A stretch of 64,000 nucleotides of DNA from an uncultured Bacteroides sp. Its GTDB lineage: Bacteria > Bacteroidota > Bacteroidia > Bacteroidales > Bacteroidaceae. The DNA is taken from positions 9,818-73,817 of the forward strand of contig NZ_CAJTSC010000010.1 in assembly GCF_910578895.1 (NCBI RefSeq), written 5' to 3'. Each line of letters starts with the position of its first letter. Within the stretch, counting starts at the first letter, position 1. A model generated the notes under the pieces. It was not told the DNA's origin. It did not search any database and was given only the letters and a program-made list of their open reading frames with translations. Shown piece by piece: positions 17,373 through 60,324 of this stretch. The position numbers and the translations under genes were made by a program.

Positions 17373-18830
17373 ATGAGTACAATCTTACAGTTGGCTCCAC
17401 AGAATGTGTGGAAGCATTTCTATTCGCTGACTCAGATACCCCGTCCGTCAGGACACATGGAGAGAATAACTGAGTTCCTGATAAACTTCGGTAAGGAGTT
17501 GGGGCTGGAATCGTTTGCCGATGAGGCGGGCAATGTCATCATCCGTAAGCCTGCCACTCCGGGCATGGAAAACCGTAAAGGGGTTATCCTGCAGGTACAC
17601 ATGGACATGGTGCCGCAGAAGAACAACGATACCGTGCACGATTTTGCCACAGACCCTATCCGGACATACATCGACGGCGACTGGGTGAAGGCGGAGGGCA
17701 CTACGCTGGGCGCGGACAACGGCTTGGGCGTGGCGGCCATCATGGCTGTGCTTGAGGCGAAAGACCTGAAACACGGTCCGCTGGAAGCGTTGATTACCAA
17801 AGACGAGGAAACGGGCATGTACGGTGCGTTCGGGTTGAAGCCGGGCACGCTGGACGGTGAAATCCTGCTGAACCTCGACTCGGAAGATGAGGGGGAACTC
17901 TATATCGGCTGTGCCGGCGGCATCGACATCACGGCAACGCTGGAATATAAGGAAGAGGCGCCTGCCGCCGACTTCGTGGCACGCCGGATTACGTTGAAGG
18001 GCTTGCGTGGTGGACACTCCGGACTGGAAATCAATCAGGGACGCGGCAATGCCAATAAGTTGCTTGCGCGCGTGGTGCACGATTTGCTGATGGAGTTCGA
18101 CTGCCAGTTGGCAAGCTTCGAAGGCGGCAATATGCGCAATGCCATCCCGCGCGAGGCGCATGCCGTGCTGGTGTTCAATCCCGAAGATATCGAAGGATTG
18201 GAAGAGTATATCAAGGAGTATGAAGCACAAATCAACGAGGAATATGCTTCGATTGAAGAAGGAATTACCTTGCAGGCGGAAACAGTGGATTTGCCCGCAG
18301 CCGTTGTTCCCGAGGAGATTCAGGACAATATGATCAGTGTACTGATGGCTTGCCAGAACGGTGTGATGCGTATGATTCCTACCGTTCCCGACACGGTGGA
18401 GACCTCTTCCAACCTTGCCATTGTGACGATTGGAAGCGGCAAGGCGGATGTCCGCATATTGGCACGCAGCTCTTGCGACACGATGAAGGATTTCCTGGCA
18501 GACAGCCTGACGGCATGTTTCTCCATGGCGGGTATGAAGGTCGAGTTGAGTGGTGGCTACTCCGGCTGGCAGCCTAATGTGGATTCTCCCATCCTGCATG
18601 CCATGACGTTGTCTTATAAGCAGCAATTCGGCGTGGAGCCGGCCGTGAAGGTAATCCATGCGGGGCTGGAGTGCGGAATTATCGGTGCCAACTGCCCGGG
18701 GCTTGATATGATTTCTTTCGGTCCTACTTTGCGCTCGCCGCATTCGCCCGATGAACGTGCGTACATTCCGTCCGTGACGAAGTTCTACGACTTCCTGGTT
18801 GCGACGCTGGAGCAGACTCCGGAAAAATAA
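17373..18830 (+). CDS. pepD: Aminoacyl-histidine (Xaa-His) dipeptidase PepD
   Basis: 485-aa M20-family protein with PepD-type motifs (IPRPSGH, HMDMV, TKDEETGM, GLECG). Confidence 0.9.
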   Translation: MSTILQLAPQNVWKHFYSLTQIPRPSGHMERITEFLINFGKELGLESFADEAGNVIIRKPATPGMENRKGVILQVHMDMVPQKNNDTVHDFATDPIRTYIDGDWVKAEGTTLGADNGLGVAAIMAVLEAKDLKHGPLEALITKDEETGMYGAFGLKPGTLDGEILLNLDSEDEGELYIGCAGGIDITATLEYKEEAPAADFVARRITLKGLRGGHSGLEINQGRGNANKLLARVVHDLLMEFDCQLASFEGGNMRNAIPREAHAVLVFNPEDIEGLEEYIKEYEAQINEEYASIEEGITLQAETVDLPAAVVPEEIQDNMISVLMACQNGVMRMIPTVPDTVETSSNLAIVTIGSGKADVRILARSSCDTMKDFLADSLTACFSMAGMKVELSGGYSGWQPNVDSPILHAMTLSYKQQFGVEPAVKVIHAGLECGIIGANCPGLDMISFGPTLRSPHSPDERAYIPSVTKFYDFLVATLEQTPEK

Positions 18831-18916
18831 TCTCTTCTATATATAAAAGTAATCTTTTCCATATATAAAGGTAATTTCCTCTATATATAAAAGCAATCTC
18901 TTCTATATATAATAAT
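18829..18916. repeat. 22-bp tandem repeat x4 (AATCTCTTCTATATATAAAAGN)
   Basis: Four units start inside the pepD stop codon. Confidence 0.8.
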
Positions 18917-18921
18917 GTGAA

Positions 18922-18951
18922 AGCAGGGTGCCGGTGCGCCCTGCTTTTTTT
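18922..18951 (+). terminator. Intrinsic terminator of pepD
   Basis: Stem agcagggtg / cgccctgct followed by seven T. Confidence 0.75.
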
Positions 18952-19115
18952 GTTGCTGCCGCTCTTCCCGCTTCGGGCGGCAGGGATTGCCGGGTGCTGC
19001 CCCGCTTTGCCCTCTCTTGCCCCTGTGGTCTGGCAGAAAATTGATGTAGGTCAAGAAATATGCTGTAAAACATGTTTTTTAGGGCAAAAATGCTTCCGTT
19101 CTTGAACAAAGGCTC

Positions 19116-19123
19116 TATTTTTG
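19116..19123 (+). promoter_or_regulatory. Candidate -7 box (TATTTTTG) upstream of the small-ORF cluster
   Basis: Matches TAnnTTTG, but I found no well-spaced TTTG -33 box. Confidence 0.3.
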
Positions 19124-19146
19124 TGTTGTAAAACATATAAATGATT

Positions 19147-19197
19147 AGGATAACAGGTTATTTTTAAGGATAACAAGATTGATTTAGGAGGATAACA
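19147..19197 (+). promoter_or_regulatory. Three direct AGGATAACA repeats in the leader of the small-ORF cluster
   Basis: Copies lie at 19147-19155, 19167-19175 and 19189-19197, spaced 20 and 22 nt apart. The third copy overlaps an AGGAGG motif at 19186-19191. Confidence 0.5.
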
Positions 19198-19199
19198 AA

Positions 19200-19274
19200 A
19201 TGAAAAAGTTGAGAAAATTGTTCAGACATTTCGGCGAGGCCGATAAGAACATCTGGGGTTATGTAATGCTTTGA
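19200..19274 (+). CDS. Small ORF 1 (24 aa) MKKLRKLFRHFGEADKNIWGYVML
   Basis: ATG lies 8 nt after AGGAGG. It is a weak paralogue of small ORFs 2 and 3 and is below the ORF-track cutoff. Confidence 0.4.
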   Translation: MKKLRKLFRHFGEADKNIWGYVML

Positions 19275-19295
19275 GCATGCAGCCCCATTGCAAGA

Positions 19296-19329
19296 GCCTG
19301 TTTAAATCTTCTTCAAGATTAAAGCAGGC
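19296..19329. repeat. Minimal family-2 hairpin (termini only)
   Basis: The sequence gcctgtttaaatctt-cttc-aagattaaagcaggc resembles the two family-2 termini joined head to head. Confidence 0.55.
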
Positions 19330-19379
19330 ACTAAGAGAGAGAGATTGTTTTTTTAAGTATCAGTTTAATTTTTAAGGTT

Positions 19380-19472
19380 ATGAAAAGAAAGATTATGAAT
19401 TCATTCAGACGTATTCTCGCAGAGGTAGGTCGTAATGAGATGTTGATGATGGGATATACCATCAAGAAGTAA
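19380..19472 (+). CDS. Small ORF 2 (30 aa) MKRKIMNSFRRILAEVGRNEMLMMGYTIKK
   Basis: About 40% identical to small ORF 3. Conserved residues show synonymous codon differences (tca/tcc, ttc/ttt, ctc/ctt, gca/gcc). Confidence 0.5.
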   Translation: MKRKIMNSFRRILAEVGRNEMLMMGYTIKK

Positions 19473-19502
19473 GAAAGAGAAGTTTTCAGGGTATTAGTTC
19501 AG

Positions 19503-19673
19503 AGTCAGTTTGAATTTTCTTCAGAAAGTATTTTTCAGCTTCTTTTGAGCCTCTTTCCGGTCTGTTTTTCCTCTTTTTATTCGTTGCATAGCCCGCTATG
19601 CTCCTCATGAAAATAGAAAAACATCCTCGGAAAGAATTCTCGAAACAATGCCGGACAAAATTTAAACAGGCTC
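19503..19673. repeat. Family-2 MITE-like element (GCCTGTTTRAATTTT termini)
   Basis: Left end gtcagtttgaattttcttcag and right end aaaatttaaacaggctc are inverted copies. The conserved core is cggtctgtttttcctctttttattcgt-catagcccgctatgctcctcatgaaaa. Confidence 0.7.
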
Positions 19674-19689
19674 TTAATTGTTTAAGATT

Positions 19690-19785
19690 ATGGGAAAAAA
19701 GATTGTAACTTCCTTTAAAAGCATTCTTGCCAAAGCCGGTGAGAATTGGATTGAGGCAATGAAGTATTATAACTACCCGAGATAA
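19690..19785 (+). CDS. Small ORF 3 (31 aa) MGKKIVTSFKSILAKAGENWIEAMKYYNYPR
   Basis: Paralogue of small ORF 2. A strong terminator follows 25 nt downstream. Confidence 0.5.
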   Translation: MGKKIVTSFKSILAKAGENWIEAMKYYNYPR

Positions 19786-19810
19786 GGGTGGCAATTGGTA
19801 AAAGACGGAA

Positions 19811-19843
19811 GGGTACATCGCATTCGGGCGGTGTACCCTTTTT
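19811..19843 (+). terminator. Intrinsic terminator closing the small-ORF cluster
   Basis: Stem gggtaca / tgtaccc followed by ttttt. Confidence 0.7.
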
Positions 19844-19871: not shown

Positions 19872-20060
19872 CACGGCTTTTTCATTTGCAGGAGTTGGAG
19901 GAGTTAAAAGGAGGCATCGCTCTCCGAGCTGAGGAGCCAAAGCCGATACTTCTGTAACAATGCCATACACAAGCGTATCGGCTCCAACTCCTTTAACGAA
20001 CTCCTGACGAAGCGATGCGAAGGGATAACTCCTCTAACTCCCCTAAATGTAAAAGCCGTA
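19872..20060. repeat. Family-1 palindromic element
   Basis: Left terminus cacggctttttcatttgcaggagttggagg, central hairpin gccgatacttctgtaacaatgccatacacaagcgtatcggc and right terminus cccctaaatgtaaaagccgta. Confidence 0.75.
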
Positions 20061-20184: not shown

Positions 20185-20192
20185 TATTTTTG
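20185..20192 (+). promoter_or_regulatory. Candidate -7 box (TATTTTTG) for the A2M gene
   Basis: Matches TAnnTTTG about 70 nt upstream of the ATG. I saw no clear -33 box. Confidence 0.3.
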
Positions 20193-20260
20193 TTTTTAGC
20201 CCCCGATGGCTTGGGGGTACAGATGCTTTCCCATAAAAACAAAAACCAATAATAATAAGA

Positions 20261-23200
20261 ATGGCTATGAAGAAATTCCAAAGATTTTGCACTTTGTTTC
20301 TGCCGATGCTCGTGATGTGCTTTTCTACCTTGTACGCCCAGTCCTACAACAGCCTGTGGCGGCAGGTGGAGCAAGCCGAAAAGAAAGGTTTGCCGCAGAC
20401 CGTAGTGAAGCTGGCGGAAGAAATCTGCCGTAAGGCAGAGCGGGAGAAGAACGCCCCGCAGTTGCTCAAGGCATACTTCTGCCGGGACGCCTATCAGGAA
20501 AAGTTGACGCCGGACAGCCTCTACACCCACCTGCCGAACCTGGAGCGTTGGGCAAAAGAGGAGCAGGACACGGTGAGCAGGGCTATCCTGCACTCCCTGC
20601 TTGCCCGCAAGTATGCGGATTATATGCGTTACAATTGGAAAACACTCTCGCAAGCTCCGGCTTTGGACATGGACGAGGCTCCTGCCGATATCCGTGAGTG
20701 GAGCTACAACCTTTTCGCTGCCAAGATAGACGGGCACTGCCTTGCTTCGTTGCGCGACGCCCGCCGTTTGCTCGAAGTCTCTTCCCGGGAGTACGCGCCT
20801 TTTGTGGTGCAAAAGGACGGAAGCCGTTTCTACGGGCACGATATGTATCACCTGCTGGCACGCCGGGCGATAAATACCTATCTTCCGCTGCATGACGGCA
20901 GGATAGATTCGTTGCGCCGTGTACGCATCGACGGCATCTATAGGAACATGATTGACGCTTACCGGCACCGTGCCGGAGCGGAAGACGCCGTGGTGCTGGC
21001 AACGCTCGATTATTGGAATTGGAAGAAAGACGAAGGCGTAAGCAGGGAACCGGACGCTACTTATATGGAGCGGAAAGCGCAGTTCGACAAGGAATATCTC
21101 GAGGCGTTGGACGGTCTGATACGTGAGTACGGCGCACGCGAAATCTGTGCGGAAGTCTACATCTGCAAGGCAAACCGGCTTCACGACATGGGGGAAACCC
21201 GTGCGGACGAGGTTTTGCAGGTGTGCGATGAGGGAGTGAGACGCTATCCTGCCTGTAAGCGCGCCAATGAATTGCGCAACATACGGGAAAGGCTCCTGCT
21301 TCCTTACCTGGGTGTTGATGTCGGGGAGAGTGTTTATCCCGGCGATTCGCTGAGGCTGAGCATGAGCTATCGCAACCTGAAAGGCTATACGCTGAACCTG
21401 TATCGCACGGATTTGCCCGAGGTGCCCTGGATGGATGCCGAAATAGACAAGGCTTTCTACCGGAAGCATGCCCGTAAATTGTCCTCAACCCATTTCGACC
21501 TTGACTATCCGGCTGATAAAGACGGAAAGCCCGCAAACGTAGGGAGCATTGTGCGGCATAAGGTTATGAAAATAAGCGGTGTTGATAGCACAGGTGTCTA
21601 TATCTTGCAAGTTGTGCCGGATGCTGCGGAAGCCCATACGGCAGAGCAGTTTCTTGTTTCCACCCGCTTCAAGGTGCTGACGCTGTCGTTGCCGGATGAC
21701 AATATGGAACTGGTCGTGGTAGACGGCCGTAGCGGACACCCCGTTCCCGATGCGGAGGTCTGTTTCTACTCCACTTACAGAGAAAATGAACGTAGTTTGG
21801 TGCAAAACGTCGTTACTGATGCCGATGGCAAAGCCGTTGTGAAGTTGAATAAGTTTATCAGCAGTTATGCGGTACGCAAGGGGACGGATATCGCCATGAC
21901 GCCCCAACGGGTTTATTGGGATAACTATTACGAACGCGGCGATTCGCGTCCGAAAGAGCGTGTCACCCTGTTGACAGACCGCTCCGTGTATCGTCCCGGT
22001 CAGACCGTCTACGTCAAAGGCATTTCTTACTTGCAGAAAGCCGACAAGGCGCACGTCCTGGCAAGAAAGGAGTACCGGGTCCGCCTGCTGGATGTGAACA
22101 GGAAAGAGCTGCTGCGGAAAACAGTCACTGCCAACGAATTCGGCTCTTTCACCACGGAACTGCCGCTGCCCGCCGCCTGCCTGAAAGGCAGCTATACGGT
22201 GGAGGTGGAAGACAAGGCTTCCGTCTCCGTGCGGGTGGAGGAGTATAAGCGCCCCACTTTCGAGATTATCTTTAATCCCGTGAAACAGGCTTACTCCCTG
22301 GGAGATACGGTGGTGGTCACCGGAAAAGTCAAGGCATACAACGGCATGGCGGTTCAGGATGTGCCGTTGGCATACACCGTTATCCGCTATCCCTATAATA
22401 TATATGTGGACGGAGACCTCGTGCCGTTCTCTTCGGACACGGTAAGGCTGGATGCGGAAGGCAACTTCTCCATTCCTGTTTTCCTGAAGCCGGGCAATGT
22501 TTCGGATGATATACGCTGGGACCGGCTCGCTTATCATGTGGAAGCGACGGTGACCGATGAGGCAGGCGAAACGCAAACCGAACGGTATAAACTGTATGCC
22601 GGCCGTCGGGCATGCTTCTTTAGTGTGACCGGCATGGACGGGCCTTTGTGCAAGGAAAATGCCATCACGGCGGAACTGATAGTGACGAACGGCAACGATG
22701 AGACGTTGCCCGTAAAGGGAACATGCCGCCTGTACTCCGTCATCGATGCCAAAACGAAAAGGATGTCGGACAGCCCCGTTTATGAGGGCACCTTCATGTC
22801 GGGCGAGACGAAAGACTTCGCTGTATGGAAGCAGTTGCCGTCGGGAGAGTACCGCCTTGTCCTGTCAGCATCGGGCGATGACGGCAGGAAAACCGGCGAC
22901 GACGGCAAGAAAACCGGTAGTGGTAAAGATACGATAGACATTGTGTTGTTCTCCTTGGCAGACCCGCGTCCGGTTGTGTTCTCGGAGACTTTCCTTTATA
23001 AAAAGAACGTGGAGTTCGATGCCGGTCATCCGGCAGAGTTCTATTTCGGTACCTCCGTGAAAGATGCCTACGTCCTGGTGGACGTCTTCGGAAGCAAAGG
23101 CAGGCTGGAGAGCGGCGCGATATTGTTGAGCGACTCGATTGTCCGTATGGAATATCCTTATCGGGAGGAGTATGGAGAGGGCGTTTCCGTACAGTTCACC

Positions 23201-26098
23201 TTTGTAAAGAACGGCGAGCGGTCCGGCTGTCGGGTGGAGCTGCGGAAACGCTTGCCCCGGCGGACGCTGGATATGAAGTGGGAAGTCTTTCGCGACCGCC
23301 TGCGTCCGGGGCAGGAGGAAGAGTGGAAGCTGGTGGTCAAGACCCCGCAAGGCCATCCTGCCGCAGCCGAGGTGCTGGCAATGATGTACGATGCTTCATT
23401 GGACAGGATTTGTAAGCACAACCAGTCGTTGGGTGTGTATTACTACCCGTATATTCCGCATTACAACTGGCATCTTGGCTACAACGCCACACGGCATTGT
23501 GCCCCTCACTTCCCCATGAAGTCGTGGGAAGTGCCCGTTTGGCGGTTCGATCATCTTTGGTCTTCTTACTATAATGGAGTGGACGAAGCCCTGTATGGCA
23601 GGCCCAGAGCCACTCTGACCGGGTCTGTAAATGGAATGATGGTAAAGAGGTCGGCGGCTGCCAAAGGGGGTCAGATAGAATATGTCTCGATGGCGGATGA
23701 AGAAGAGCCGGAAGAACATAGCCTGTACGAGACGATAATACCCCCGCCCTCGGAGCAGATATTGCCGCCTATGGCGGAACTGCGTACCGACTTTTCCGAA
23801 ACGGCTTTCTTCTACCCGCAGTTGCGCACCAACGCGCAGGGAGAGGTGGCTTTCTCCTTCACCATGCCGCAAAGCCTGACGCGCTGGAATTTCCGCGGCT
23901 ATTCCCACACCAAGGAGATGATGACGGGGATGCTCCATGCCACTGCCGTCACCGCCAAGGAGTTTATGCTCACTCCGAACATGCCGCGCTTTGTGCGGGT
24001 AGGCGATAAGACGCAGATTGCCGCCGGCATCGCCAACCTGTCGGACAAAGCCGTGAAAGGCACAGCCGTGTTCACCCTCTTCGACCCGATGACGGAGAAG
24101 GTTATCTCCGTGCAACGCCGTAAATTCTCGGTGGAAGCCGGAAAGAGGGCGACGGTCGTTTTCCCGTTCGATGTAACGGACCGTTGCGACCTGCTTGGCG
24201 TCCGCATGGTGGCGGACGGCGGCGCATTCAGCGACGGCGAGCAGCACCTGTTGCCTGTGCTGGGCAACAAAGAGTACATCACCGAGGCGATTGCCATGCC
24301 CGTGCGTGGCGAGGAGGCCCGCACTTTCTCCTTGGAAAGGCTGTTCAACGGCAACAGCCGCACGGCAACCGACCGCCGCCTGACAGTGGAGTTCACAGGC
24401 AATCCGGCATGGTATGCCGTGCAAGCCCTGCCCGCCCTGAGCCAATCCGTTGCGGATAATGCAATTTCACGCGCTGCCGCCTTCTATGCCAACAGCCTGG
24501 CAGGCCATATCGCCGATAGCCGGCCGCGCATCAAGGCGGTGTTCGACAACTGGCGTTCGTCGGGCGGCACCAAAGAGACTTTCCTCAGCCAACTGGAGAA
24601 GAACCAGGATGTGAAGAATATCCTCTTGGACAACTCCCCCTGGCTGCTCGAAGCTACCACCGAGGCGGAACGGCACCAGCGCATCGCCACCTTGTTCGAT
24701 GTAAATCAATTGAATTACCGTAATATGGAATCCCTGCTCAAACTGAAAGAGTTGCAGGGCGAAGACGGTGCTTGGAGCTGGTTCGGTGGCATGTCCGGCA
24801 GCCGTTACGTCACAAGCTATGTCACAAGGCTGCTTGTCCGCCTGTCCCTGCTCACGGGCAAGGCGTTGCCGGAAGAGGCGGAGGCGATGAAAGGCAAGGC
24901 ATTCGGCTATCTCAACAAGCAAGCATTCGAAGAATACCGTCTCCTTCGCAAGGCGGAGAAGAACGGAGCCAAGGTTGCCGGCGTGTCGGGTGCCGCTATG
25001 GACTATCTGTATTTGGTGACCCTCGCTTCGGAAAAGCTTTCCGGTGAGTATGCAAAGGCATTCGATTATTTTCTTGGCAAGTTGGGGCATAACCCTGCGA
25101 ACGGCACGATGGTTGGCAAGGCGCAGACCGCCGCTATCTTGCAGAGAGTGGGGCGCAAGGCGGCAGCGGACCAATTGATGGCCTCTGTCAAAGAACATCT
25201 GGTGCAGACGGACGAGATGGGAGCGCATTTCGCTTTCCATGACGGTCCGTACAACTGGGGCATGCTTCCGGTGCCCGCCCACGTGGCCGTGATGGAAGCC
25301 CTGCGCGAGGCGGGCGGCAACGATGCTTTGGTGGAAGAGATGAAACTCTGGCTGCTGAAACAGAAGCAGGCTACAAGCTGGAACTCTCCGGTTGCCACCG
25401 CCGATGCTGTTTACGCCCTGCTGTGCCAAGGCGACAACCTGCTGGAGAGCCAAGGAGATGTCCGCATCACGCTAGGCAGCAAGGTGTTGGAGACCGGTTC
25501 TCCGGCACAGGCCGCCATGCCGGGATTGGGCTATGTCAGGGAAACCTTTGCACAAGGCGCTCCCGAACTGAAAGCAACGTCCGTCACCGTAGAGAAGCGG
25601 GATGCGGGCATCGCGTGGGGAGCCGTCTATGCGCAATACCTGTCGCCCCTGTCCGATGTGAAGCAGCAGGGCGGCGGGCTGAATATCGAGAAGAGACTCT
25701 TCGTAGAGCGTATCTCCGCCAACGGGCAGAAGTCCCTGCAACCCTTGACGGATGCCGGTCCGCTCTCCGTAGGCGATAAGGTCATTGCCCGGCTGACTCT
25801 CCGTCTGGACCGCGCCATGGACTTTATCCAGCTGAAAGACCAACGCGGGGCATGCTTCGAACCGATAGGATCGCTTTCCGGCTATCGCTGGAGCAACGGG
25901 TTCGGGTTCTACGTGGAAGTGGAAGATACCGGCGCCAACTTCTTCTTCGACCACCTGGGCAAAGGTGTCTATGTATTGGAACACAGCTACCGCGTGGCTC
26001 GCGGCGGCACGTACGAAACCGGGCTTGCCACCGTGCAGTGCGCTTATGCACCCGAATATGCTTCGCATACTGCGGGCGGAACGGTTGTAATCCGGTAG
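20261..26098 (+). CDS. Alpha-2-macroglobulin family protein (giant, no thioester)
   Basis: 1945 aa with a signal peptide (MAMKKFQRFCTLFLPMLVMCFSTLYAQS), MG-domain-like repeats and a helical TED-like region. The C-terminus is receptor-domain-like (IQLKDQRGACFEP). The usual CGEQ site reads SDGEQ at 24230-24244. Confidence 0.85.
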   Translation: MAMKKFQRFCTLFLPMLVMCFSTLYAQSYNSLWRQVEQAEKKGLPQTVVKLAEEICRKAEREKNAPQLLKAYFCRDAYQEKLTPDSLYTHLPNLERWAKEEQDTVSRAILHSLLARKYADYMRYNWKTLSQAPALDMDEAPADIREWSYNLFAAKIDGHCLASLRDARRLLEVSSREYAPFVVQKDGSRFYGHDMYHLLARRAINTYLPLHDGRIDSLRRVRIDGIYRNMIDAYRHRAGAEDAVVLATLDYWNWKKDEGVSREPDATYMERKAQFDKEYLEALDGLIREYGAREICAEVYICKANRLHDMGETRADEVLQVCDEGVRRYPACKRANELRNIRERLLLPYLGVDVGESVYPGDSLRLSMSYRNLKGYTLNLYRTDLPEVPWMDAEIDKAFYRKHARKLSSTHFDLDYPADKDGKPANVGSIVRHKVMKISGVDSTGVYILQVVPDAAEAHTAEQFLVSTRFKVLTLSLPDDNMELVVVDGRSGHPVPDAEVCFYSTYRENERSLVQNVVTDADGKAVVKLNKFISSYAVRKGTDIAMTPQRVYWDNYYERGDSRPKERVTLLTDRSVYRPGQTVYVKGISYLQKADKAHVLARKEYRVRLLDVNRKELLRKTVTANEFGSFTTELPLPAACLKGSYTVEVEDKASVSVRVEEYKRPTFEIIFNPVKQAYSLGDTVVVTGKVKAYNGMAVQDVPLAYTVIRYPYNIYVDGDLVPFSSDTVRLDAEGNFSIPVFLKPGNVSDDIRWDRLAYHVEATVTDEAGETQTERYKLYAGRRACFFSVTGMDGPLCKENAITAELIVTNGNDETLPVKGTCRLYSVIDAKTKRMSDSPVYEGTFMSGETKDFAVWKQLPSGEYRLVLSASGDDGRKTGDDGKKTGSGKDTIDIVLFSLADPRPVVFSETFLYKKNVEFDAGHPAEFYFGTSVKDAYVLVDVFGSKGRLESGAILLSDSIVRMEYPYREEYGEGVSVQFTFVKNGERSGCRVELRKRLPRRTLDMKWEVFRDRLRPGQEEEWKLVVKTPQGHPAAAEVLAMMYDASLDRICKHNQSLGVYYYPYIPHYNWHLGYNATRHCAPHFPMKSWEVPVWRFDHLWSSYYNGVDEALYGRPRATLTGSVNGMMVKRSAAAKGGQIEYVSMADEEEPEEHSLYETIIPPPSEQILPPMAELRTDFSETAFFYPQLRTNAQGEVAFSFTMPQSLTRWNFRGYSHTKEMMTGMLHATAVTAKEFMLTPNMPRFVRVGDKTQIAAGIANLSDKAVKGTAVFTLFDPMTEKVISVQRRKFSVEAGKRATVVFPFDVTDRCDLLGVRMVADGGAFSDGEQHLLPVLGNKEYITEAIAMPVRGEEARTFSLERLFNGNSRTATDRRLTVEFTGNPAWYAVQALPALSQSVADNAISRAAAFYANSLAGHIADSRPRIKAVFDNWRSSGGTKETFLSQLEKNQDVKNILLDNSPWLLEATTEAERHQRIATLFDVNQLNYRNMESLLKLKELQGEDGAWSWFGGMSGSRYVTSYVTRLLVRLSLLTGKALPEEAEAMKGKAFGYLNKQAFEEYRLLRKAEKNGAKVAGVSGAAMDYLYLVTLASEKLSGEYAKAFDYFLGKLGHNPANGTMVGKAQTAAILQRVGRKAAADQLMASVKEHLVQTDEMGAHFAFHDGPYNWGMLPVPAHVAVMEALREAGGNDALVEEMKLWLLKQKQATSWNSPVATADAVYALLCQGDNLLESQGDVRITLGSKVLETGSPAQAAMPGLGYVRETFAQGAPELKATSVTVEKRDAGIAWGAVYAQYLSPLSDVKQQGGGLNIEKRLFVERISANGQKSLQPLTDAGPLSVGDKVIARLTLRLDRAMDFIQLKDQRGACFEPIGSLSGYRWSNGFGFYVEVEDTGANFFFDHLGKGVYVLEHSYRVARGGTYETGLATVQCAYAPEYASHTAGGTVVIR

Positions 26099-26116: not shown

Positions 26117-26255
26117 TTGTCTCATTTAAGGGAGTTGAAGGAGTTATCGGGAATTAAAGGAGTTATATGCCGGTAGTATCGCCATACATCGACAGGGCTA
26201 TCGGCTTCTGACTCCTCAGCCCGAAGGGTGCTCCTGTAAATGAAAAAGTTGTGTG
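26117..26255. repeat. Family-1 palindromic element (diverged copy)
   Basis: Left terminus ctcatttaagggagttgaaggagtt and right terminus ctcctgtaaatgaaaaagttgtg. Confidence 0.6.
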
Positions 26256-26529: not shown

Positions 26530-26634
26530 TTTCTCTTTTTATTCGTCACATAGCCCGCACTATGCTCTTCATAAAACAGAAAAACATTCCCAAAGAGAAC
26601 TCTCAAGATAATACTGAACAAAATTTAAACAGAC
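26530..26634. repeat. Family-2 element, right half only
   Basis: It carries the core ttctctttttattcgtcacatagcccgcactatgctcttcataaaacagaaaaaca and the right terminus aaaatttaaacagaccc. There is no left terminus. Confidence 0.65.
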
Positions 26635-34548: not shown

Positions 34549-34848
34549 TTTACATAGTCCGCTATGCTTCTCATGAAAACTGAAAAACATCCTTGCTAAG
34601 AAACTCTCACGGCTTTTTCATTTACAGGAATTAAGAGGAGTCATCACTTCGCATCGCTTCATTAGGAGTTAAGGGAGTTAGAGGAGTTAGAGCCGATACT
34701 CTTGTGTATTACATCGTTGCAGAGGTATCGGTTTTAACTTCTAACCCGGTTTGGCGGCTGATAACTCCCTTTAACTCCTCTAACTCCTGTAAATGAAAAA
34801 GCCGTGAAGAACCCTCAAAATAATGCCGGATAAAATTTAAACAGGCTC
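34549..34848. repeat. Family-2 element interrupted by a family-1 element
   Basis: The core catagtccgctatgcttctcatgaaaactgaaaaacatcc...aagaaactctca sits left of the insert. To its right are aagaaccctcaaaataatgccggataaaatttaaacaggctc. Confidence 0.7.
34608..34806. repeat. Family-1 palindromic element, best-preserved copy (199 bp)
   Basis: The 22-nt termini are perfect inverted copies (cacggctttttcatttacagga / tcctgtaaatgaaaaagccgtg). The arms are GGAGTTA-rich and the central hairpin is gccgatac...gtatcgg. Confidence 0.85.
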
Positions 34849-34912
34849 TTATTATTCGTATCTTTGGGCGGCGGGCAGGCAGATGTGCGCCGCACCCGCA
34901 TCAGGCAGCGTT

Positions 34913-51822: not shown

Positions 51823-52236
51823 TTAGGGGTCAACAACGAAACTTATAACTCTACCATCATTTTTCCTGATTTCTATATAAACTGTGCGTCCTCCCCAAAT
51901 TATGCCTTCTTTTGTGGTTATAGGGTCAGGAAAAGAACTCATGATATACCAAACACTATCAACCTGGTTAATTCTGAAAGGCTTTTGGTTATTCATTTCC
52001 TTTTCCCCTAAGAATTCTTTTATCATAGGTTCCACTACTTTGTATGCTATTTCCGCAGTGGGAACTTCATCACCGGACCAATGTTTTGGAATATAAGTCG
52101 AAAGAGAATCAAAAACTTCAGGATAATACCTTGTGAGTGTAGTGTCCACAACGTAGTCGGAAGGGGTATTACTCCCTTTTCTTGAACAGCTTACCATCAG
52201 TAAGAGTAGCAATGCGACAAATAAAAGTTTCTTCAT
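51823..52236 (-). CDS. Lipoprotein, candidate immunity protein for the Rhs C-terminal toxin (Imm-NTF2-like)
   Basis: Starts MKKLLFVALLLLLMVSCS (lipobox). The segment AEIAYKVVEPMIKEFLGE...WYIMSS...GGRTVYIEIRKNDGRVISFVVDP resembles NTF2-fold immunity proteins. It begins 4 nt after the toxin stop and is AT-rich. Confidence 0.55.
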   Translation of the reverse strand: MKKLLFVALLLLLMVSCSRKGSNTPSDYVVDTTLTRYYPEVFDSLSTYIPKHWSGDEVPTAEIAYKVVEPMIKEFLGEKEMNNQKPFRINQVDSVWYIMSSFPDPITTKEGIIWGGRTVYIEIRKNDGRVISFVVDP

Positions 52237-52240
52237 ACGT

Positions 52241-55200
52241 TCAAAATAGATTTTTAATAACATTATACAATTCCTCTAAAATATTCTTCTGGTCATCTAT
52301 TGTTTGTTGCAACTTAATGTTATCCTGCGGTTCTATCCTATTCTTACGTGAGGGGGCGTTAGGATCACTTGGCAATCCCGTAGAAATAACATCTATTTTA
52401 TCTGTTTTAGGATTATGCTCTAACAAACTTCCATTGGGAGTGGCTAAAAAACCTGTCATTTCTTTTTGCCTATTATTGGATAAATCCGAATGAGAAAAAA
52501 TGTTATCCTTCACATATTTTATTTTTCCATCTTTATCTAAAAAAGTCCCGTCGTAATTCCCATGAGAGTGAATTGTTGCCACAATCTTTTCACCGTTAGA
52601 GGGTCCGCTTACTGTGGTCTGATGTCCATCCGAAATGTTTGCTTCCGAATATGAATATCCTTCCAGCGTACCTTTTTTTCTGACTTCATAAATGGAAGAT
52701 CCCATTTCCCTTTTCCGGATGATGGATGCTCCGTTATAATACATGCCCCAATCTTTAGCCGCTTCCTTGGGAGTCTTGAACAAATCACCGGGACCGAAAT
52801 CCATCCCGCTTTTATCAATAAAGAGTATCGGATTGTTTCCGCAATACGTATACGGGCTTATCTGATAATATTTCTCCGCCATCGGGTCAACCGTCGTAAA
52901 TCTTCCCAACGCCGCATCATAATGCCGTGCTCCGTAGTCGTACCAGTTCAGCCCGTTTTTCGTATCAAGTTCCTTGCCGTTGTATTTGTAAGGCTGCACA
53001 CTGTTACTTGAAGATGCGAAGATACCACCGAACGGATAGTAGTGATTTGTCTCTTCCACCGTACCGTTTTGGTCTACCACCACCCGGTTATTTCCCTGAT
53101 GGTCCTTCACGTAATAGTGGTAAACATTGTCCGAAAGCGTCACATAACCCACTTCCGTCAGCAGCAGTTTGGCAATACCGTTTTCATAGACCACATTCCC
53201 GCAATAGTCCGTTGTGGTGACTGCACCGCCTATTGTATGCACCGTACGGAGTTTCGTTCCGTCCGCGGCATACACGTAACTGATGGTGTTCCCGTCACCA
53301 AACGTGACCTTGCTTGACAAATTTAAACAATTATATTGAATATCAGCAATATTCCTGTTTAAATCTTTGGTTAGATTTCCGTTCGCATCGTAGGCGTATT
53401 CATTTGCTTGCTTCGCGCCGTCTCTGAACTCGAAGCCGCCGTTGTAAACGGAATCGGTCACAGCATCATCCACACGGCTCAACCGGTTGCCGTTCAGCGT
53501 GAAAGTCAGGTCGTCAATCATGCCGTATCCCGATGCAGAAGTCTGTCCGTAACGTTGCAACCCCTTGATATTACCGTTTTTGTCATAACCCGTCACCCTC
53601 TCAGTAAAGAAATTCGGATTACCGTTTATGGAACTCCCTTCTCCATACTCGGCTTCCGTCAAACGGTCCAGCCCGTCATAAGCGAACTTGTATCCTCTTA
53701 TCATACCGTCTTCCGTACCCACCTGCCACGTCATACTGCTTATATTCCGTTGTAACAGGGAGTCCCATAGCCGTCCGTATAGTATAGGCTCTGCGCAAAC
53801 TTTCCGGCATCCACGCCCGTCAGCAGGGAGCGGGTATTGTAGCTGTACGTCGTGTTGCAAGCCGAGCCGTGGAAGATGCCGGTACGTATTCTTCCCAATT
53901 CATCGTAGCTGTTTTTCAATAACACCACTTCGGGAAGCGCATTCAGTTGGTGGCGTACCTCGGTCACCCGCTCCGCATGGTCGTAGGCATAGCTGTACAC
54001 TTCCGTCTGTGCAGTCCCGCCCGCGGTGGTCTGCGTGTGCTTGTGTTTTAGCGTCTGCCCGCTGAAGGAGTAAACGAAGCAGTCCGTGTCAATGCCGCCC
54101 AACAAGTTGCAGGCGCGTTGCTGCACCAGCCGCCCCTCGGCATCGTAATACAAGGCGGAGGAAAGGGATACTGTGGGAATTGTTTTCGATACAGTTTTCG
54201 ATGCAACTCCCGATGCTACTTCTGATGCCGCTCCCGCGACAATTCCCGCTCCGAAATCCCTTGTCCCCGTCAATCGCCCTTTCCCTGCGGAACTCCCGTC
54301 AAACCGTGCGTCATACCCCTCTTCCGGGGCATACGCCAGCCCCAAGGGCACGCCGTCCAGTCTTAAAAACAGGTAATTGTCGTAGTAGTTCACTTTCAGC
54401 AGCTGCGCGCCCTCTTCCGTGATGTCCATTCCGCTGACGTCATACCCGCTGCCGAGGAAACCGCCCGTCCCGCAGAACACGGCGTTCGCTGTAGAAGACT
54501 GCACGGACGTCTCGTCGACCATCCCGATACCTTCCACCGTCACCCTTCCCTGCGCGTCATAGAACGTAAACACCCACTTGCCTTGCGCGCGGAGCATCCC
54601 GTCCTGCTGCAGCACGGGACGGTCCGCCTCGTCATGGCATACATATACCTATACCCCGGCAGTTTGTATTCCGTACACAGGTTCCTGCCATTGTAGGTGT
54701 ACAGGAAGGCATATTTCTCCAATTCGTCTCCCGATGGTGAGACGGATACCTCGGGCGGAAGCACGCAGCAAAGGTTGCCCCGTGCATCGTACACATACCG
54801 CGTGTCATGCACCACCGTCCCGTCCTCGTAATCGCCCGCATAAACGGGAGTGTTCCCCGCAATGCCTGTATGCAGTTGCGTATGTATGCGTTGTCCGAGG
54901 ACGTTCCCAATTGCTCCACGATGTCTGTCCCCAACGCGGCGCAGACATCCGCATAAGCGGCGCCTTTTATTTCCGCCACGGGATACCGGTTGCCATACCT
55001 CCACAGGTAGGTTGTCACGGGCAGGTCGTTGGCGTCCCGCTGCACGATGTTCCCGGCAGCGTCATAAACTAACGCATACTTCTCGTAATACCCTTGTGGA
55101 ATGCGGAAACCGTCCATGTCCGAACTTCCCGAATAGCCGCCGGACTCCAGCCTGTACACGGCTTTCACCAGTGCCGGGTTTTCCGTATCGAATATGTTTA

Positions 55201-57937
55201 TGCTGCCCGACACCTTTGTGTTGCCGTCTTCCGTCACGCGTTCGGTCTCCACCTGTATCGGCACTCCTACCATGTGCCGTTTTTCCATGGCATCCACGAA
55301 GTCGCCGGAGCATTGGGCGGCATAGTGGGTCACGGTCTTTTCCGTCTCTCCTTCGGGATAGGTCACCGTGACTGTGGTGGGCTGCAATAGCGCGTCGTAT
55401 TCGTATCCGGTCACTGTAACCAGCTTTTTCCCGCCGGCATACACGGTGTCGGTTACCTCCACGGGCAGCACGTCGCCGGTGGCGGCTCCCTGGTCGTAGG
55501 TCGCCACCAACTGGGGTATGTCCATGTTGCGCAGGGTGTACGGGTCGCTTATCTCGCTGTAGGTATAGCGGTCGTACTCGTCGCCACTGTCATAAACACC
55601 CATGATGATCCCTTTCTTATAACAGAGAAACGTGTTTATCACGTGCTCGTTCTTGCGGAATGTCTGATACCGGTATCTTTTGGCGCTTACAGGCACGAAA
55701 TTCCCGTTTTCGTATCTGTACACGTTCTCCTGTTCCATTTGTCCGTTCCGCCACTCTTCGGTAAACTCCAACAGGTTGGTATCCTCTATTTTGCGGCGCA
55801 TGGAGAAACCAAAGGCGTTGGGGTCGGTATAAATGAACTCCTTTTTCCCGTTCAGCCCGTCCGTGTCGTAGTCATATTCCGTCACTTTGGTGTAATAGAC
55901 GGGAGAGCCGTTGCCGTAGAACAGGCTTTCAAGCGGGTAGGCAAGATAGGTGGTACGCGTTTCGGAACTGCGTGCCTCGGCACTGTCGTCCGACAACGAG
56001 TCGTCGTCTCCGAAAAAGGGGTTGACAAGATAGTTCACCGTCTGCTTGTAGCAGAAAACCTCGTCGATGTCCGGAGTGTTATAGTAGTACAGCCCGTTGG
56101 GGATGCCGCCGACCCAGCGGGTGTCGCCGTAGACGAACTTCTTGCGCGTCAGCAGGGTGCCGTCGCTGTCGTGGTTGCTGATGTCCGTTACGCGCAGCCC
56201 GCCGCACAGGAAGGGGGCGTAGTTCATTCCCCGCTGCTCGCCGACATTGTTCTCGAAGCTGAACCGGGTATATCCGCCCGTGGGGTAGGTTATCTTCTCG
56301 AGCTGTCCCATAAGGGCGTATTCGGGGTCTATCCAGTCGTTCATTTCGTTCAGGTACTCGTGCGTGCCTCCTATCCAGGTCCAGAAATCCTCCGTGTAAG
56401 CGGAAGGGGCATCTGCATAATAGTGTTTTGCCTGTACCATCATGGCAGGAACCGTTATTCCGCAGGATAGGTCCATGCGGCAGGTTTGCCTGTTTACCCC
56501 GCCCCATGCGTCAAATCCTTTCAGGAAGTTTGAGAAGGCATATTTTGCCGTGTAGGCAAAGTGGTAAGTTTCCGCTGTGTGGTCGCTGCCGTCTTCTATC
56601 GTGATGGCATCCAGGTAGTTGGTGCGGCTCGTGTTCGCCACCGAGGTCCGTTTGCCGGTTTTCGACTGGTCCAGTCGTATACGGCGGACGATTGTCCCGT
56701 CCTGTCGTTTTACGCGGATTTCCGTCATGCAGCTTTCATTGTCATACAAGAAATCAATCCGATTGCCGTTTAGTGTTATCCCCGAAATGCCCATCCGGGT
56801 TTGTACCAACAGTTTTGCCTGTTCGCGTGAAGTCTCGTAGAAGTCAAAACGTATGCCATCCTCCGCTTCGGGGTCCTCGGTGTAGAGTTCCAATCCGGAG
56901 CCTTGCCCGAAAGAGTGGTACACCGTGCGGGGCACGTTCAGTTTGTCGAAACGGAAGAGGTTACGTACCCGTTCAAGGGTCTGCTGCGATTTCGGGATAG
57001 CTTCGTCGATGTCTTCCGGAAAATAAGTGCTACGTCCGGAGATACCCCCGTGGGCGCCTGCAAGGTCTTCATAGAACTCCATATATTCCCCCGACAGATA
57101 CGTCCCCCGCTCCTCCAGGCTTTGGTAGTCGATATGCAGGGTCTCGCCGCCCGAGGGGGAGACAATGCGGCTGCACTTCCAGGCGGATTGTGTTTCTGCG
57201 CCGCTGGACAGGTAGGGATACAGGCGTTGCCGTTCGGAGAAGGTGTACTCATACCGTGTCCCGTCCGTATCGGTGATGCGGAAATTCACATCGTTCCGGT
57301 TGCCGGTAGGGAAGCACTCTATCTTTATGCCGTTGTAGGGCACCGGGACGAAGTACTTGCCCTTGTCGTTCTTCACCAGGTAGAAGCAGCCCGATTTCTC
57401 CGGAAGCCTGTAATAGAATTTGTCGGGCTGCGTGTCCATCGTCCCGTTGGCTATGGAGAGCAGGTTGATGGGGTCGTCCAGCAGGCTGCCGTCGTAGGCG
57501 TGGCTGTTATAGTGATAACAGAACGGGTTGTAATACAAACCTTTGTACAGTCTGTAGCCTTCTGCGTTCAGGAAGTCGTCCCCGCCTTTGATTTCGCGTG
57601 TAATCTGCAGGTCGCACCCCAGCGTCCATCCCATGCCCGTGCAGGGAGCCTGCTCGCGTGCCTTGAAGCCGCCGGCATGGTAGTTCAGCACAATGGGTAC
57701 GGACAGTTCGCGCCCCTTGAACTCGTAGAGGGGGATGCTGATGGACGGCACGCCGCTGTTGTATCCCACGGGATAGTTGATTGCCTTTACCAGCGTCGCC
57801 GCTTCGGGCGAGACCGTGTTTGCCACCGGAAAACCCGGCTGTTCCTGTTGCGCGTATGCCGTTCCCGCGCAAAGAAGCGGCAGGAGCAGTATGCATCTTA
57901 TTCTTTTTATGGTTTGTGATAGGTTTCTTGTCTTCAT
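52241..57937 (-). pseudogene. Rhs/YD-repeat polymorphic toxin disrupted by three frameshifts
   Basis: The gene starts at MKTRNLSQTIKRIRCILLLPLLCAGTAYAQ (57937). Its reading frame continues through ORFs 54632..58060, 54540..55004, 53740..54615 and 52241..53860. YD repeats include YVYDARGNL, YTYNGRNL, FTFYDAQGR and YAYDANGNL. The Rhs core ends at YDYGARHYDAALGRFTTVDP...PYTYCGNNPILFIDKSGM. Frame switches fall near 54885, 54635 and 53750. Confidence 0.65.
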
Positions 57938-58040
57938 CGTGTTTCTTGTTTTTGTTTCGGTTCGGATAAAAAAAGACCTTCCGGCAGGAAGGGGCGGCAG
58001 AGCCCGTTGTGTCCTGCCGGAAGGTGGTTGCGCTCTTCTG

Positions 58041-58145
58041 CTACAATACGCTTGTGCCATGTGTTCCCAGCGCCCCGGCCAAAGCCGACACCGCCGCGAT
58101 GATCACTTTCAGGATGATATCCCAAACGGATTTCTTGATTGCCAT
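58041..58145 (-). CDS. 34-aa small hydrophobic protein (smalltalk-like) MAIKKSVWDIILKVIIAAVSALAGALGTHGTSVL
   Basis: ATG at 58143-58145 lies 10 nt downstream of a perfect AGGAGG (58156-58161). One predicted TM helix. It resembles my memory of the Bacteroides smalltalk small-protein family. Below the ORF-track cutoff. Confidence 0.5.
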   Translation of the reverse strand: MAIKKSVWDIILKVIIAAVSALAGALGTHGTSVL

Positions 58146-60107: not shown

Positions 60108-60324
60108 GGCCTGTTTGAATTTTCTTCAAAAAGTTTTTTCTTCAGCTTCTTCCCAAGTTTCTTCCCGGTCTGTTTTCCTCTTTTTATCCGTCACATAGCC
60201 CGCTATGCTCCTCGTAAAAACAGAATGACATCCTCGAAAAGAACGCTCAAAAAACTATACCTATATCAAATAGGTAAAAAATGTTTTGAGCGAAGCTAAT
60301 GCCGGACAAAATTTAAACAGGTTC
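60108..60324. repeat. Family-2 MITE-like element, full copy (217 bp)
   Basis: Termini ggcctgtttgaattttcttc and aaaatttaaacaggttc are inverted copies. The core cggtctgttttcctctttttatccgtcacatagcccgctatgctcctcgtaaaaacag is shared with 19503-19673. Confidence 0.8.

Follow-up and report, generated by a model that had tools for sequence, protein, structure and literature searches.

Three conserved small open reading frames form a putative microprotein operon upstream of an alpha-2-macroglobulin gene in Bacteroides

Organisation of the locus

The stretch of 64,000 nucleotides analysed here, called the window below, comes from an uncultured Bacteroides sp. (contig NZ_CAJTSC010000010.1 of assembly GCF_910578895.1, positions 9,818 to 73,817 of the forward strand). 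Between the dipeptidase gene pepD and a gene for a giant alpha-2-macroglobulin (A2M) protein, it carries three small open reading frames (sORFs) on the forward strand, which are referred to as p1, p2 and p3. Comparison with related genomes indicates that they are very probably real protein-coding genes under purifying selection, which form an operon of their own (bases 19041-19843). An earlier note on this DNA had listed the three frames, an AGGAGG and three direct repeats in front of the first, a palindromic hairpin after the first, a repeat element between the second and the third, a strong terminator behind the last, and the giant A2M gene downstream. All of these were found again, with the three frames at exactly the positions given here, counted from the first base of the window:

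19041-19054, no strand: CRP/FNR-type palindrome TTGATGTAGGTCAA (TTGAy-N4-rTCAA), its centre lying about 82 bp 5' of the predicted transcription start
19060-19073, no strand: palindrome O1, 14 bp, ATGCT-GTAA-AACAT; ATGTT-N4-AACAT in most species and conserved across genera
19116-19123, + strand: Bacteroides -7 box TATTTTTG (consensus TAnnTTTG); predicted start at about 19130
19123-19136, no strand: palindrome O2, GTGTT-GTAA-AACAT, over the predicted start, its centre 63 bp from that of O1
19147-19197, + strand: unstructured 5' leader with AGGATAACA three times (at 19147, 19167 and 19189), the third within TAGGAGGATAACAAAATG
19200-19274, + strand: sORF p1, 24 amino acids, MKKLRKLFRHFGEADKNIWGYVML; conserved core ADKNIWGYVML; 43 intact orthologues
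19293-19330, no strand: solo palindromic hairpin in the p1-p2 spacer, matching the terminal inverted repeat of a dispersed repeat family
19346-19379, + strand: conserved A/U-rich initiation region before p2, with ..AGTATCAGTTTAATTTTTAAGGTT directly before the ATG
19380-19472, + strand: sORF p2, 30 amino acids, MKRKIMNSFRRILAEVGRNEMLMMGYTIKK; conserved core ILAEVGRNEMLMMGY; 42 intact orthologues
19482-19499, + strand: conserved intercistronic motif GTTTTCAGGGTATTAGTT, in relatives directly 5' of the p3 initiation region
about 19500-19675, no strand: intergenic, dispersed repeat element, about 176 bp long, which interrupts the p2-p3 spacer and is not ancestral to the operon
19690-19785, + strand: sORF p3, 31 amino acids, MGKKIVTSFKSILAKAGENWIEAMKYYNYPR; conserved core G(K/E)NW(M/I)EAM(K/R)YY; predicted single alpha-helix over residues 2-27
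19809-19843, + strand: intrinsic terminator with a GC-rich stem of 13-14 bp, a 6-nt loop and U5; -26.4 kcal/mol
20185-20192, + strand: -7 box TATTTTTG of the A2M gene itself, 3' of the sORF terminator

Coding evidence and selection

Homologues of the three peptides were sought in 80 species-representative loci anchored on PepD and drawn from Bacteroides, Mediterranea and Caecibacteroides at a PepD identity of at least 80%, a set to which B. thetaiotaomicron, B. fragilis and Phocaeicola do not belong. With the peptides as queries, tblastn finds intact homologues at the same site in all three genera, and hidden Markov models built from these homologues detect at least one intact, ATG-initiated sORF in 58 of the 80 genomes. 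The complete trio occurs in 20 of the 58, p1 with p2 in 17, p2 with p3 in six, and p1 with p3 in four, while nine genomes have p3 only and two have p1 only. This retention of different subsets by different lineages suggests that the paralogues are partly redundant.

The integrity of the frames was assessed without presupposing an ORF, at tblastn sites with E < 1e-3. The expected ATG, a frame without internal stops and a stop codon near the expected place are present at 123 of the 124 sites, the sole non-intact copy being a truncated p3 (locus L048). Codon alignments of 40 (p1), 33 (p2) and 39 (p3) distinct nucleotide versions contain gaps of whole codons in every case. Their column entropy is highest at the third codon position (first, second and third positions: 0.59, 0.35 and 1.10 in p1; 0.74, 0.56 and 1.24 in p2; 0.68, 0.51 and 1.14 in p3). 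The pooled proportion of nonsynonymous differences (pN) is 0.21-0.26 and that of synonymous differences (pS) 0.64-0.76, the latter saturated, which corresponds to a dN/dS of about 0.1-0.17 or lower in a set that was picked by motif patterns and is therefore biased towards low dN at the motif residues. The 3-periodicity and the integrity count are independent of this motif-based selection.

The sORFs are regarded as genes because their orthologues are intact, their variation is 3-periodic, their gaps comprise whole codons and the insertions described below fall into spacers only. Conservation of the frames in relatives, on which the earlier note had made its reading depend, is thus borne out, and its suggestion of a small-protein operon of unknown role is supported by this conservation, by the purifying selection and by what appear to be the cassette's own promoter and terminator. 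By the same comparison, the family is conserved across Bacteroides and the closest genera.

Relationship of the three peptides

Ungapped alignment of p2 and p3 gives 12 identities over 30 positions. As had been noted before, the shared Ser8, Phe9, Leu13 and Ala14 are encoded by different synonymous codons in the two genes (tca/tcc, ttc/ttt, ctc/ctt and gca/gcc). The alignment score (z = 6.9) is reached by none of 2000 shuffles, and comparison of the two profiles gives P = 4e-7; judged by these scores, p2 and p3 are paralogous. The profile of p1 resembles that of the C-terminal 25 residues of p2 (..G.ADKNIWGY and ..GRNEMLMMGY, P = 0.008), and profile-profile comparison detects no significant similarity between p1 and p3. 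The description of the three as a paralogous trio holds for p2 and p3, and for p1 it is reduced to a weak resemblance to p2 without a detectable link to p3. Seemingly intermediate forms between the subfamilies exist, namely ..IGENEEKAWGLL (L053 and L066) and a p3 that ends in ..NWMTAMGYY (L203), and it is plausible that the three share a common ancestor.

The similarity of the peptides might also be owed to the DNA repeats that lie between the genes, a possibility which is refuted by two observations. Each coding segment occurs only once in the window, where no further member of the sORF family is found either, and the repeats are spacer insertions that are absent from relatives; because of these two facts, the peptide similarity is not attributed to the repeat families. 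Both the hairpin after p1 (-16.6 kcal/mol, z = -3.3) and the 176-bp element, further copies of which lie at 60113-60321, 34553-34851 and 26533-26632, are strain-specific insertions that alignment does not find in the three closest relatives. Both are confined to spacers and leave the ORFs and about 19 nt 5' of each ATG intact. The 176-bp insertion splits a conserved motif into GTTTTCAGGGTATTAGTT (19482-19499) and TAATTTTTAAGATT (19676-19689). Since it parts the p3 start from the upstream half of this motif, expression of p3 in the window strain might be altered relative to other species.

A second dispersed palindromic repeat family, with arms formed by ACGGCTTTTTCATTTGCAGGAGTTGGAGGAGTTA and its complement, has a copy inserted at 19873-20059, behind the terminator of the sORFs and ahead of the promoter of A2M. 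Related copies lie near 34607-34807, 26120-26250, 1854, 2280 and 15345, and the closest relatives examined lack the insertion at 19873-20059.

Predicted promoter, palindromes and terminator

An alignment of 41 distinct sequences covers the 160 bp 5' of the first sORF. This region is strongly conserved while the synonymous sites of the sORFs are saturated, and the palindromes and the -7 box are invariant in it. A degenerate -33 element, GCTTC in the window and GCTTG in relatives, lies 19 nt 5' of the -7 box. The promoter consensus of Bacteroides is established knowledge and is also given by Ryan et al. 2020 (PMC7366714). Transcription would start from this -7/-33 promoter at the predicted position of about 19130.

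The CRP/FNR-type palindrome is the sole match in the window, and its two half-sites, TTGA and TCAA, do not vary among the 41 upstream sequences. It has the form of a CRP/FNR promoter site (TTGAT-N4-ATCAA or TTGAC-N4-GTCAA at an activating distance), here at about -82 from the predicted start; the consensus is TTGATnnnnATCAA for FNR/DNR and TTGACnnnnGTCAA for HcpR (PMC1274295). From the three conserved 14-bp palindromes that frame the promoter, it follows that expression of the operon is probably conditional: a CRP/FNR-family factor would activate transcription and a second factor would repress it.

Transcription would end at the hairpin and U5 tract of 19809-19843. A hairpin with a T-run follows the last sORF in 23 of 23 loci examined, although its sequence varies by lineage, and a search against Rfam (E <= 10) yields chance matches only, which are driven by the terminator. 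Between this terminator and the A2M start, a promoter-like block (TTTG .. TTnCTTTG or TAnnTTTG) is conserved in the 23 loci. Because a terminator and then a conserved promoter intervene, the sORFs and the A2M gene would be separate tandem transcription units.

Leader and Shine-Dalgarno site

Folding of the leader RNA is not significant (z = -0.3). The AGGATAACA unit occurs five times in the window against 0.25 expected, and the leaders of relatives contain one to three units, ending in TAGGAGGATAACAAAATG. The two copies outside the leader, at 52318 and 52501, are regarded as coincidental and both lie within a toxin gene.

The AGGAGG at 19186-19191 lies 8 nt 5' of the p1 ATG and gives p1 a strong, conserved Shine-Dalgarno (SD) sequence at a functional spacing. 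The extended AGGAGGA is invariant in the alignment of 41 upstream sequences, apart from one gapped row (L080) that reads GAGGA. Nowhere in the window does GGAGG stand 4-12 nt before the ATG start of an ORF of at least 100 amino acids, and the intergenic starts that combine GGAGG with an ATG, as read from the listing of the window, are two: p1 and a smalltalk sORF. Ribosomes of Bacteroidia sequester their anti-SD, and strong SDs are rare in this class, being reported chiefly for genes of ribosomal proteins such as rpsR, rplE, rplF and rplI, where translational control is suspected; in Flavobacteriales, rpsU is an SD-bearing gene (PMC7797042, PMC9976891). With its rare, strong and conserved SD, p1 is like these genes, but they encode ribosomal proteins, whereas p1-p3 are lineage-restricted microproteins without a known link to the ribosome. 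Because strong SDs are rare in Bacteroidia, the invariance of AGGAGGA before p1 needs explaining. It may be a functional SD for ribosomes with an exposed anti-SD, or it may be a unit of the repeated AGGATAACA element that is recognised by something else. Translation of p1 would initiate from this invariant site, and that of p2 and p3 from A/U-rich initiation regions of the Bacteroides type.

The smalltalk sORF (58041-58145, - strand; 34 amino acids, MAIKKSVWDIILKVIIAAVSALAGALGTHGTSVL; 45.9 bits against NF033879) has a perfect extended SD, AAAGGAGGTGT, 10 nt 5' of its ATG. Downstream of it lies an apparent polymorphic-toxin locus (51823-58060, - strand), the 3' part of which is visibly AT-rich. 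This locus comprises a protein of about 1100 amino acids without a Pfam match (54632 to about 57930), a YD/RHS-like protein that ends in DUF4329 (52241-53860) and an Imm-NTF2-2 immunity lipoprotein (51823-52263).

Properties of the peptides and search for relatives

The three peptides have a net charge of +4 to +6 and a grand average of hydropathy (GRAVY) of -0.39 to -0.45, and no signal peptide or membrane-spanning hydrophobic stretch is present in any of them. Over the first 11-18 residues, the helical hydrophobic moment is high, at 0.6-1.0. For p3, AlphaFold2 with an alignment of 16 sequences gives one helix over residues 2-27 (mean predicted local distance difference test score, pLDDT, of 80). 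A natural p2-p3 read-through fusion (P0001), modelled with AlphaFold2 as a check for packing of the two peptides, comes out as one continuous helix, an outcome that is uninformative in this respect. Each product is predicted to be a cationic amphipathic alpha-helix. Conservation per column differs along the peptides: in the N-terminal half only the pattern of basic and hydrophobic residues is kept, and the C-terminal 9-11 residues (ADKNIWGYVML, GRNEMLMMGY and GKNWMEAMRYY) are near-invariant on all helical faces.

The earlier note had recognised no described family in the peptides, which agrees with the absence of significant matches in Pfam, NCBIfam, PADLOC, PHROGs, PDB sequences and Rfam. When 1.84 billion representative proteins were searched with a profile, 28 clusters were returned, mostly of the p2/p3 type, and no distant informative relative is among those retrieved, which do not include P0036 (1066 amino acids); the match to one cluster of 191 amino acids (P0045) is repetitive and was rejected as spurious. 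A profile of the concatenated trio retrieves only mis-called read-through or extended ORFs, all of them unnamed. The public records are unnamed or read "hypothetical protein" or "Uncharacterized protein", among them p3 of B. uniformis (R9HRU6_BACUN) and of B. heparinolyticus (TCO89263.1), and p2 is on record from B. cellulosilyticus (K9EHI1_9BACE, ALJ61209.1). The name "tRNA splicing ligase" on one record is evidently spurious. As far as these searches reach, the family is narrow and lineage-restricted.

A search of the full-text literature, which included the peptide strings, found no paper mentioning the sORF family, and the supplements of the MetaRibo-Seq and B. thetaiotaomicron transcriptome papers contain none of its peptide or DNA motifs. 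For B. thetaiotaomicron, 'several putative sORFs' have been described in the long 5' untranslated region (UTR) of BT_4401 (Ryan et al. 2020, PMC7366714). They were considered as relatives and rejected, being unrelated to the p1-p3 family. The entries for this 5' UTR (sORF_00378-00381 in Supplementary Data 3) look, in our reading of their sequences, like the transfer-messenger RNA (tmRNA, ssrA) of the species.

Among known small proteins of the order, smalltalk (NF033879) is likewise specific to Bacteroidales and about 30 amino acids long, begins with MxxKK and, in the window, is likewise preceded by a strong SD. It differs in having a hydrophobic, membrane-like C-terminal half and in heading a polymorphic-toxin locus, neither of which applies to p1-p3. 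At E <= 10, p1-p3 have no NCBIfam match, NF033879 (cut-off 24.7 bits) included, while the window's own smalltalk sORF served as a control at the score given above.

Neighbouring genes and distribution

The neighbours of the cassette are pepD, A2M, DUF1573 and MeaB genes, and the earlier observation that no modifying enzyme or transporter is adjacent stands. The pepD product (17373-18830) consists of Peptidase_M20 and M20_dimer domains, is 94-95% identical to PepD of a B. stercoris metagenome-assembled genome and of B. propionicigenes, and its gene has a terminator of its own at 18919-18948. From the pepD stop codon to just 5' of this terminator (18823-18910), a 22-nt unit (TATATATAAAAGyAATCTyTTC-like) is repeated four times in tandem. 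The downstream gene (20261-26098, + strand) encodes a protein of 1945 amino acids with A2M, MG2 and bMG10 domains. It has a signal peptide and lacks the CxEQ thioester motif; because of this absence, it may be a thioester-less, MagD-like bacterial macroglobulin. The 5' UTR of the gene contains a long hairpin (20187-20245), which is the source of a spurious weak Rfam match to 'Phe_leader'.

In the 80 genomes, wherever A2M occupies the site, the sORFs lie directly upstream on the same strand (42 of 42 loci), and the distance from the end of the last sORF to the A2M start is typically about 130-260 nt. A second survey, in which metagenome contigs were scanned with the back-translated p3 core, yielded 120 loci. 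The order pepD - sORFs - A2M - DUF1573 - MeaB is found in nearly all contigs that are long enough, and most of the 120 loci are from B. uniformis and carry p1 and p3 only. The homologues therefore do recur next to A2M genes, a test that the earlier note had proposed.

The linkage is not absolute. In 16 loci the sORFs are present without A2M in the fetched flank, which measures at least 1.5 kb in 12 of them; two loci (L081 and L082) have the order pepD - p1' - p3' - DUF1573 - MeaB. Where insertions follow pepD (L005 and L014-L016), the sORFs remain beside A2M, and where A2M is absent or displaced (L003, L013, L029, L031, L046, L055, L066, L067 and L081), they remain beside pepD. In L051 the cassette is inverted. 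Because the sORFs persist beside either neighbour when the other is displaced or missing, the cassette is, judged by its distribution, an autonomous module whose association with A2M is historically strong and may also be functional.

Viral contigs yielded no p3 motif. A single short contig (L206, Logan SRR23925016) carries a divergent p3, MKMNVKNELTRIIKKAGTNWMESMRYYSLQM, at 35-130, not beside A2M and convergent to a thioredoxin gene and a gene for a B12-binding radical-SAM/DUF4080 protein, the latter on the opposite strand.

Possible functions

The favoured reading is that the cassette is an operon of microproteins of its own, the products of which would act in trans and not as cis-acting leaders, with the conserved C-terminal block binding a specific macromolecular partner, either a protein or a ribonucleoprotein. 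A specific partner is preferred to generic membrane binding because the C-terminal residues are near-invariant on every helical face. Taken as a whole, with its putative partner, this statement is given about an even chance. Several points weigh against it. The family and PDB searches connect the peptides with no characterised protein, and it is only by their resemblance to a consensus that the palindromes are assigned to a transcription-factor family. A conserved C-terminus would be expected equally of an exported mature peptide, and the near-constant place just 5' of A2M could mean a functional tie.

That the peptides are exported without a signal, in the manner of phenol-soluble modulins (PSMs), aureocin A70 or short hydrophobic pheromones, and act on membranes or a receptor through their C-terminal part is rather unlikely, although the architecture fits: tandem genes of 24-31 codons with individual starts lie between a single promoter and a single terminator, regulation of the promoter looks strong, and the products are cationic amphipathic helices with conservation concentrated in the C-terminus. 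The psm-alpha operon of S. aureus likewise consists of tandem paralogous genes of about 20-30 codons in one short transcription unit, encodes amphipathic helices without signal peptides at a core-genome locus that long went unannotated, and is under direct transcription-factor control, a feature that is predicted here. Yet p1-p3 come from a different phylum, have no sequence relation to the psm-alpha peptides and are not members of the PSM family in Pfam (no Pfam match at E <= 10); they are more hydrophilic, cationic and equipped with a sequence-specific invariant C-terminus, and no Pmt-type exporter is adjacent. Leaderless multi-peptide bacteriocins such as aureocin A70 and enterocin L50 are also tandem, related, cationic peptides without leaders (two to four, of about 30-44 amino acids), but their loci are accessory or plasmid-borne, with transporter and immunity genes, whereas the sORFs occupy a fixed chromosomal site between pepD and A2M without such genes and with the same synteny in about 200 loci. 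The lack of an adjacent transporter, immunity or receptor gene, the fixed core-genome site across genera in place of the patchy spread of bacteriocin loci, the hydrophilic character overall (GRAVY of about -0.4) and the absence of homologues from viral contigs all count against export, and generic membrane activity would not require invariance on all helical faces. The earlier note had also considered toxins, of which the membrane-inserting type is disfavoured because the peptides have no hydrophobic segment; the hydrophobic transmembrane helix of about 18-20 residues that is typical of type I toxins is missing. The conserved WGY, MGY and KYY motifs of p1-p3, which resemble aromatic motifs that some radical-SAM enzymes cross-link, as well as the size and tandem paralogous arrangement of the genes, recall precursors of ribosomally synthesised and post-translationally modified peptides (RiPPs). 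Such precursors would be modified by enzymes encoded elsewhere in the genome. None of the roughly 200 fetched loci has an adjacent modifying enzyme, protease or exporter, the radical-SAM gene near the divergent p3 of L206 being a single case on the other strand. The peptides also lack a core rich in Cys, Ser or Thr, and with a variable N-terminus and an invariant C-terminus they invert the usual order of a conserved leader and a variable core, which makes this origin highly improbable.

The position of the sORFs directly upstream of A2M on the same strand in all 42 A2M loci, their short distance from its start and the terminator in between recall leader-peptide attenuators and regulatory upstream ORFs, which are likewise short same-strand ORFs 5' of a large gene and followed by a terminator hairpin. 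Translation of the sORFs would then decide how often the terminator at 19809-19843 is read through, and would thereby set A2M expression. A regulatory leader, which the earlier note had entertained, is nevertheless disfavoured, and very unlikely, because the terminator is followed by a separate promoter for A2M (in the 23 loci examined) and because sORFs persist without an adjacent A2M (in 16 genomes, for 12 of which the fetched flank covers at least 1.5 kb, besides the inverted cassette). The three ORFs, moreover, are under strong purifying selection at the peptide level, whereas leader peptides conserve regulatory codons and not whole peptides at a dN/dS of about 0.1, and the p3 stop lies 23 nt 5' of the terminator stem, with no alternative pairing evident. 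A role as ribosome- or translation-associated factors, with synthesis tied to the state of the ribosome through the SD of p1, is distinctly unlikely. It would account for the near-invariance of AGGAGGA at optimal spacing in 41 lineages and would agree with the occurrence of strong SDs mainly on ribosomal-protein genes in Bacteroidia (PMC7797042, PMC9976891). Small basic proteins of similar size, namely a 30-amino-acid bS22 homologue and bL38, are carried by Bacteroidia ribosomes. On the other hand, no ribosome chain of the PDB matches p1-p3, ribosomal microproteins are more basic than they are, the family is restricted to few genera, and AGGAGGA could be kept as the third AGGATAACA repeat instead of as an SD. 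It is likewise a speculative and fairly unlikely extension that the operon exemplifies an SD-led class of sORFs in Bacteroidales, which only ribosomes with an exposed anti-SD would translate efficiently. If this were true, microprotein output would report on ribosome state and perhaps feed back on it, and the CRP/FNR-type promoter would add an input from redox conditions or nitric oxide (NO). Finally, the region could encode a non-coding RNA, or be no more than conserved intergenic DNA, with the ORFs being incidental, as the leader and spacers also hold conserved non-coding motifs. This reading is close to refuted: substitution is 3-periodic with saturated synonymous sites, ATG and stop positions are conserved with a single copy damaged, no Rfam family matches and the leader has no significant structure.

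Significance

Species of Bacteroides, such as B. uniformis and B. cellulosilyticus, belong to the most abundant bacteria of the human gut, and their small proteome is almost unexplored. The pepD-A2M interval adds to it what appears to be a deeply conserved and strongly selected microprotein operon, regulated-looking by the signs in its sequence and without a characterised relative, for which annotation ranges from none to "hypothetical protein". The operon would offer a genetically tractable entry to the role of conserved microproteins of fewer than 35 residues in gut commensals, and to the purpose of rare conserved SD sequences in bacteria whose ribosomes hide the anti-SD. Bacterial alpha-2-macroglobulin is a poorly understood envelope-defence protein, and the constant place of the sORFs beside its gene may provide a lead on how it is used in Bacteroides.

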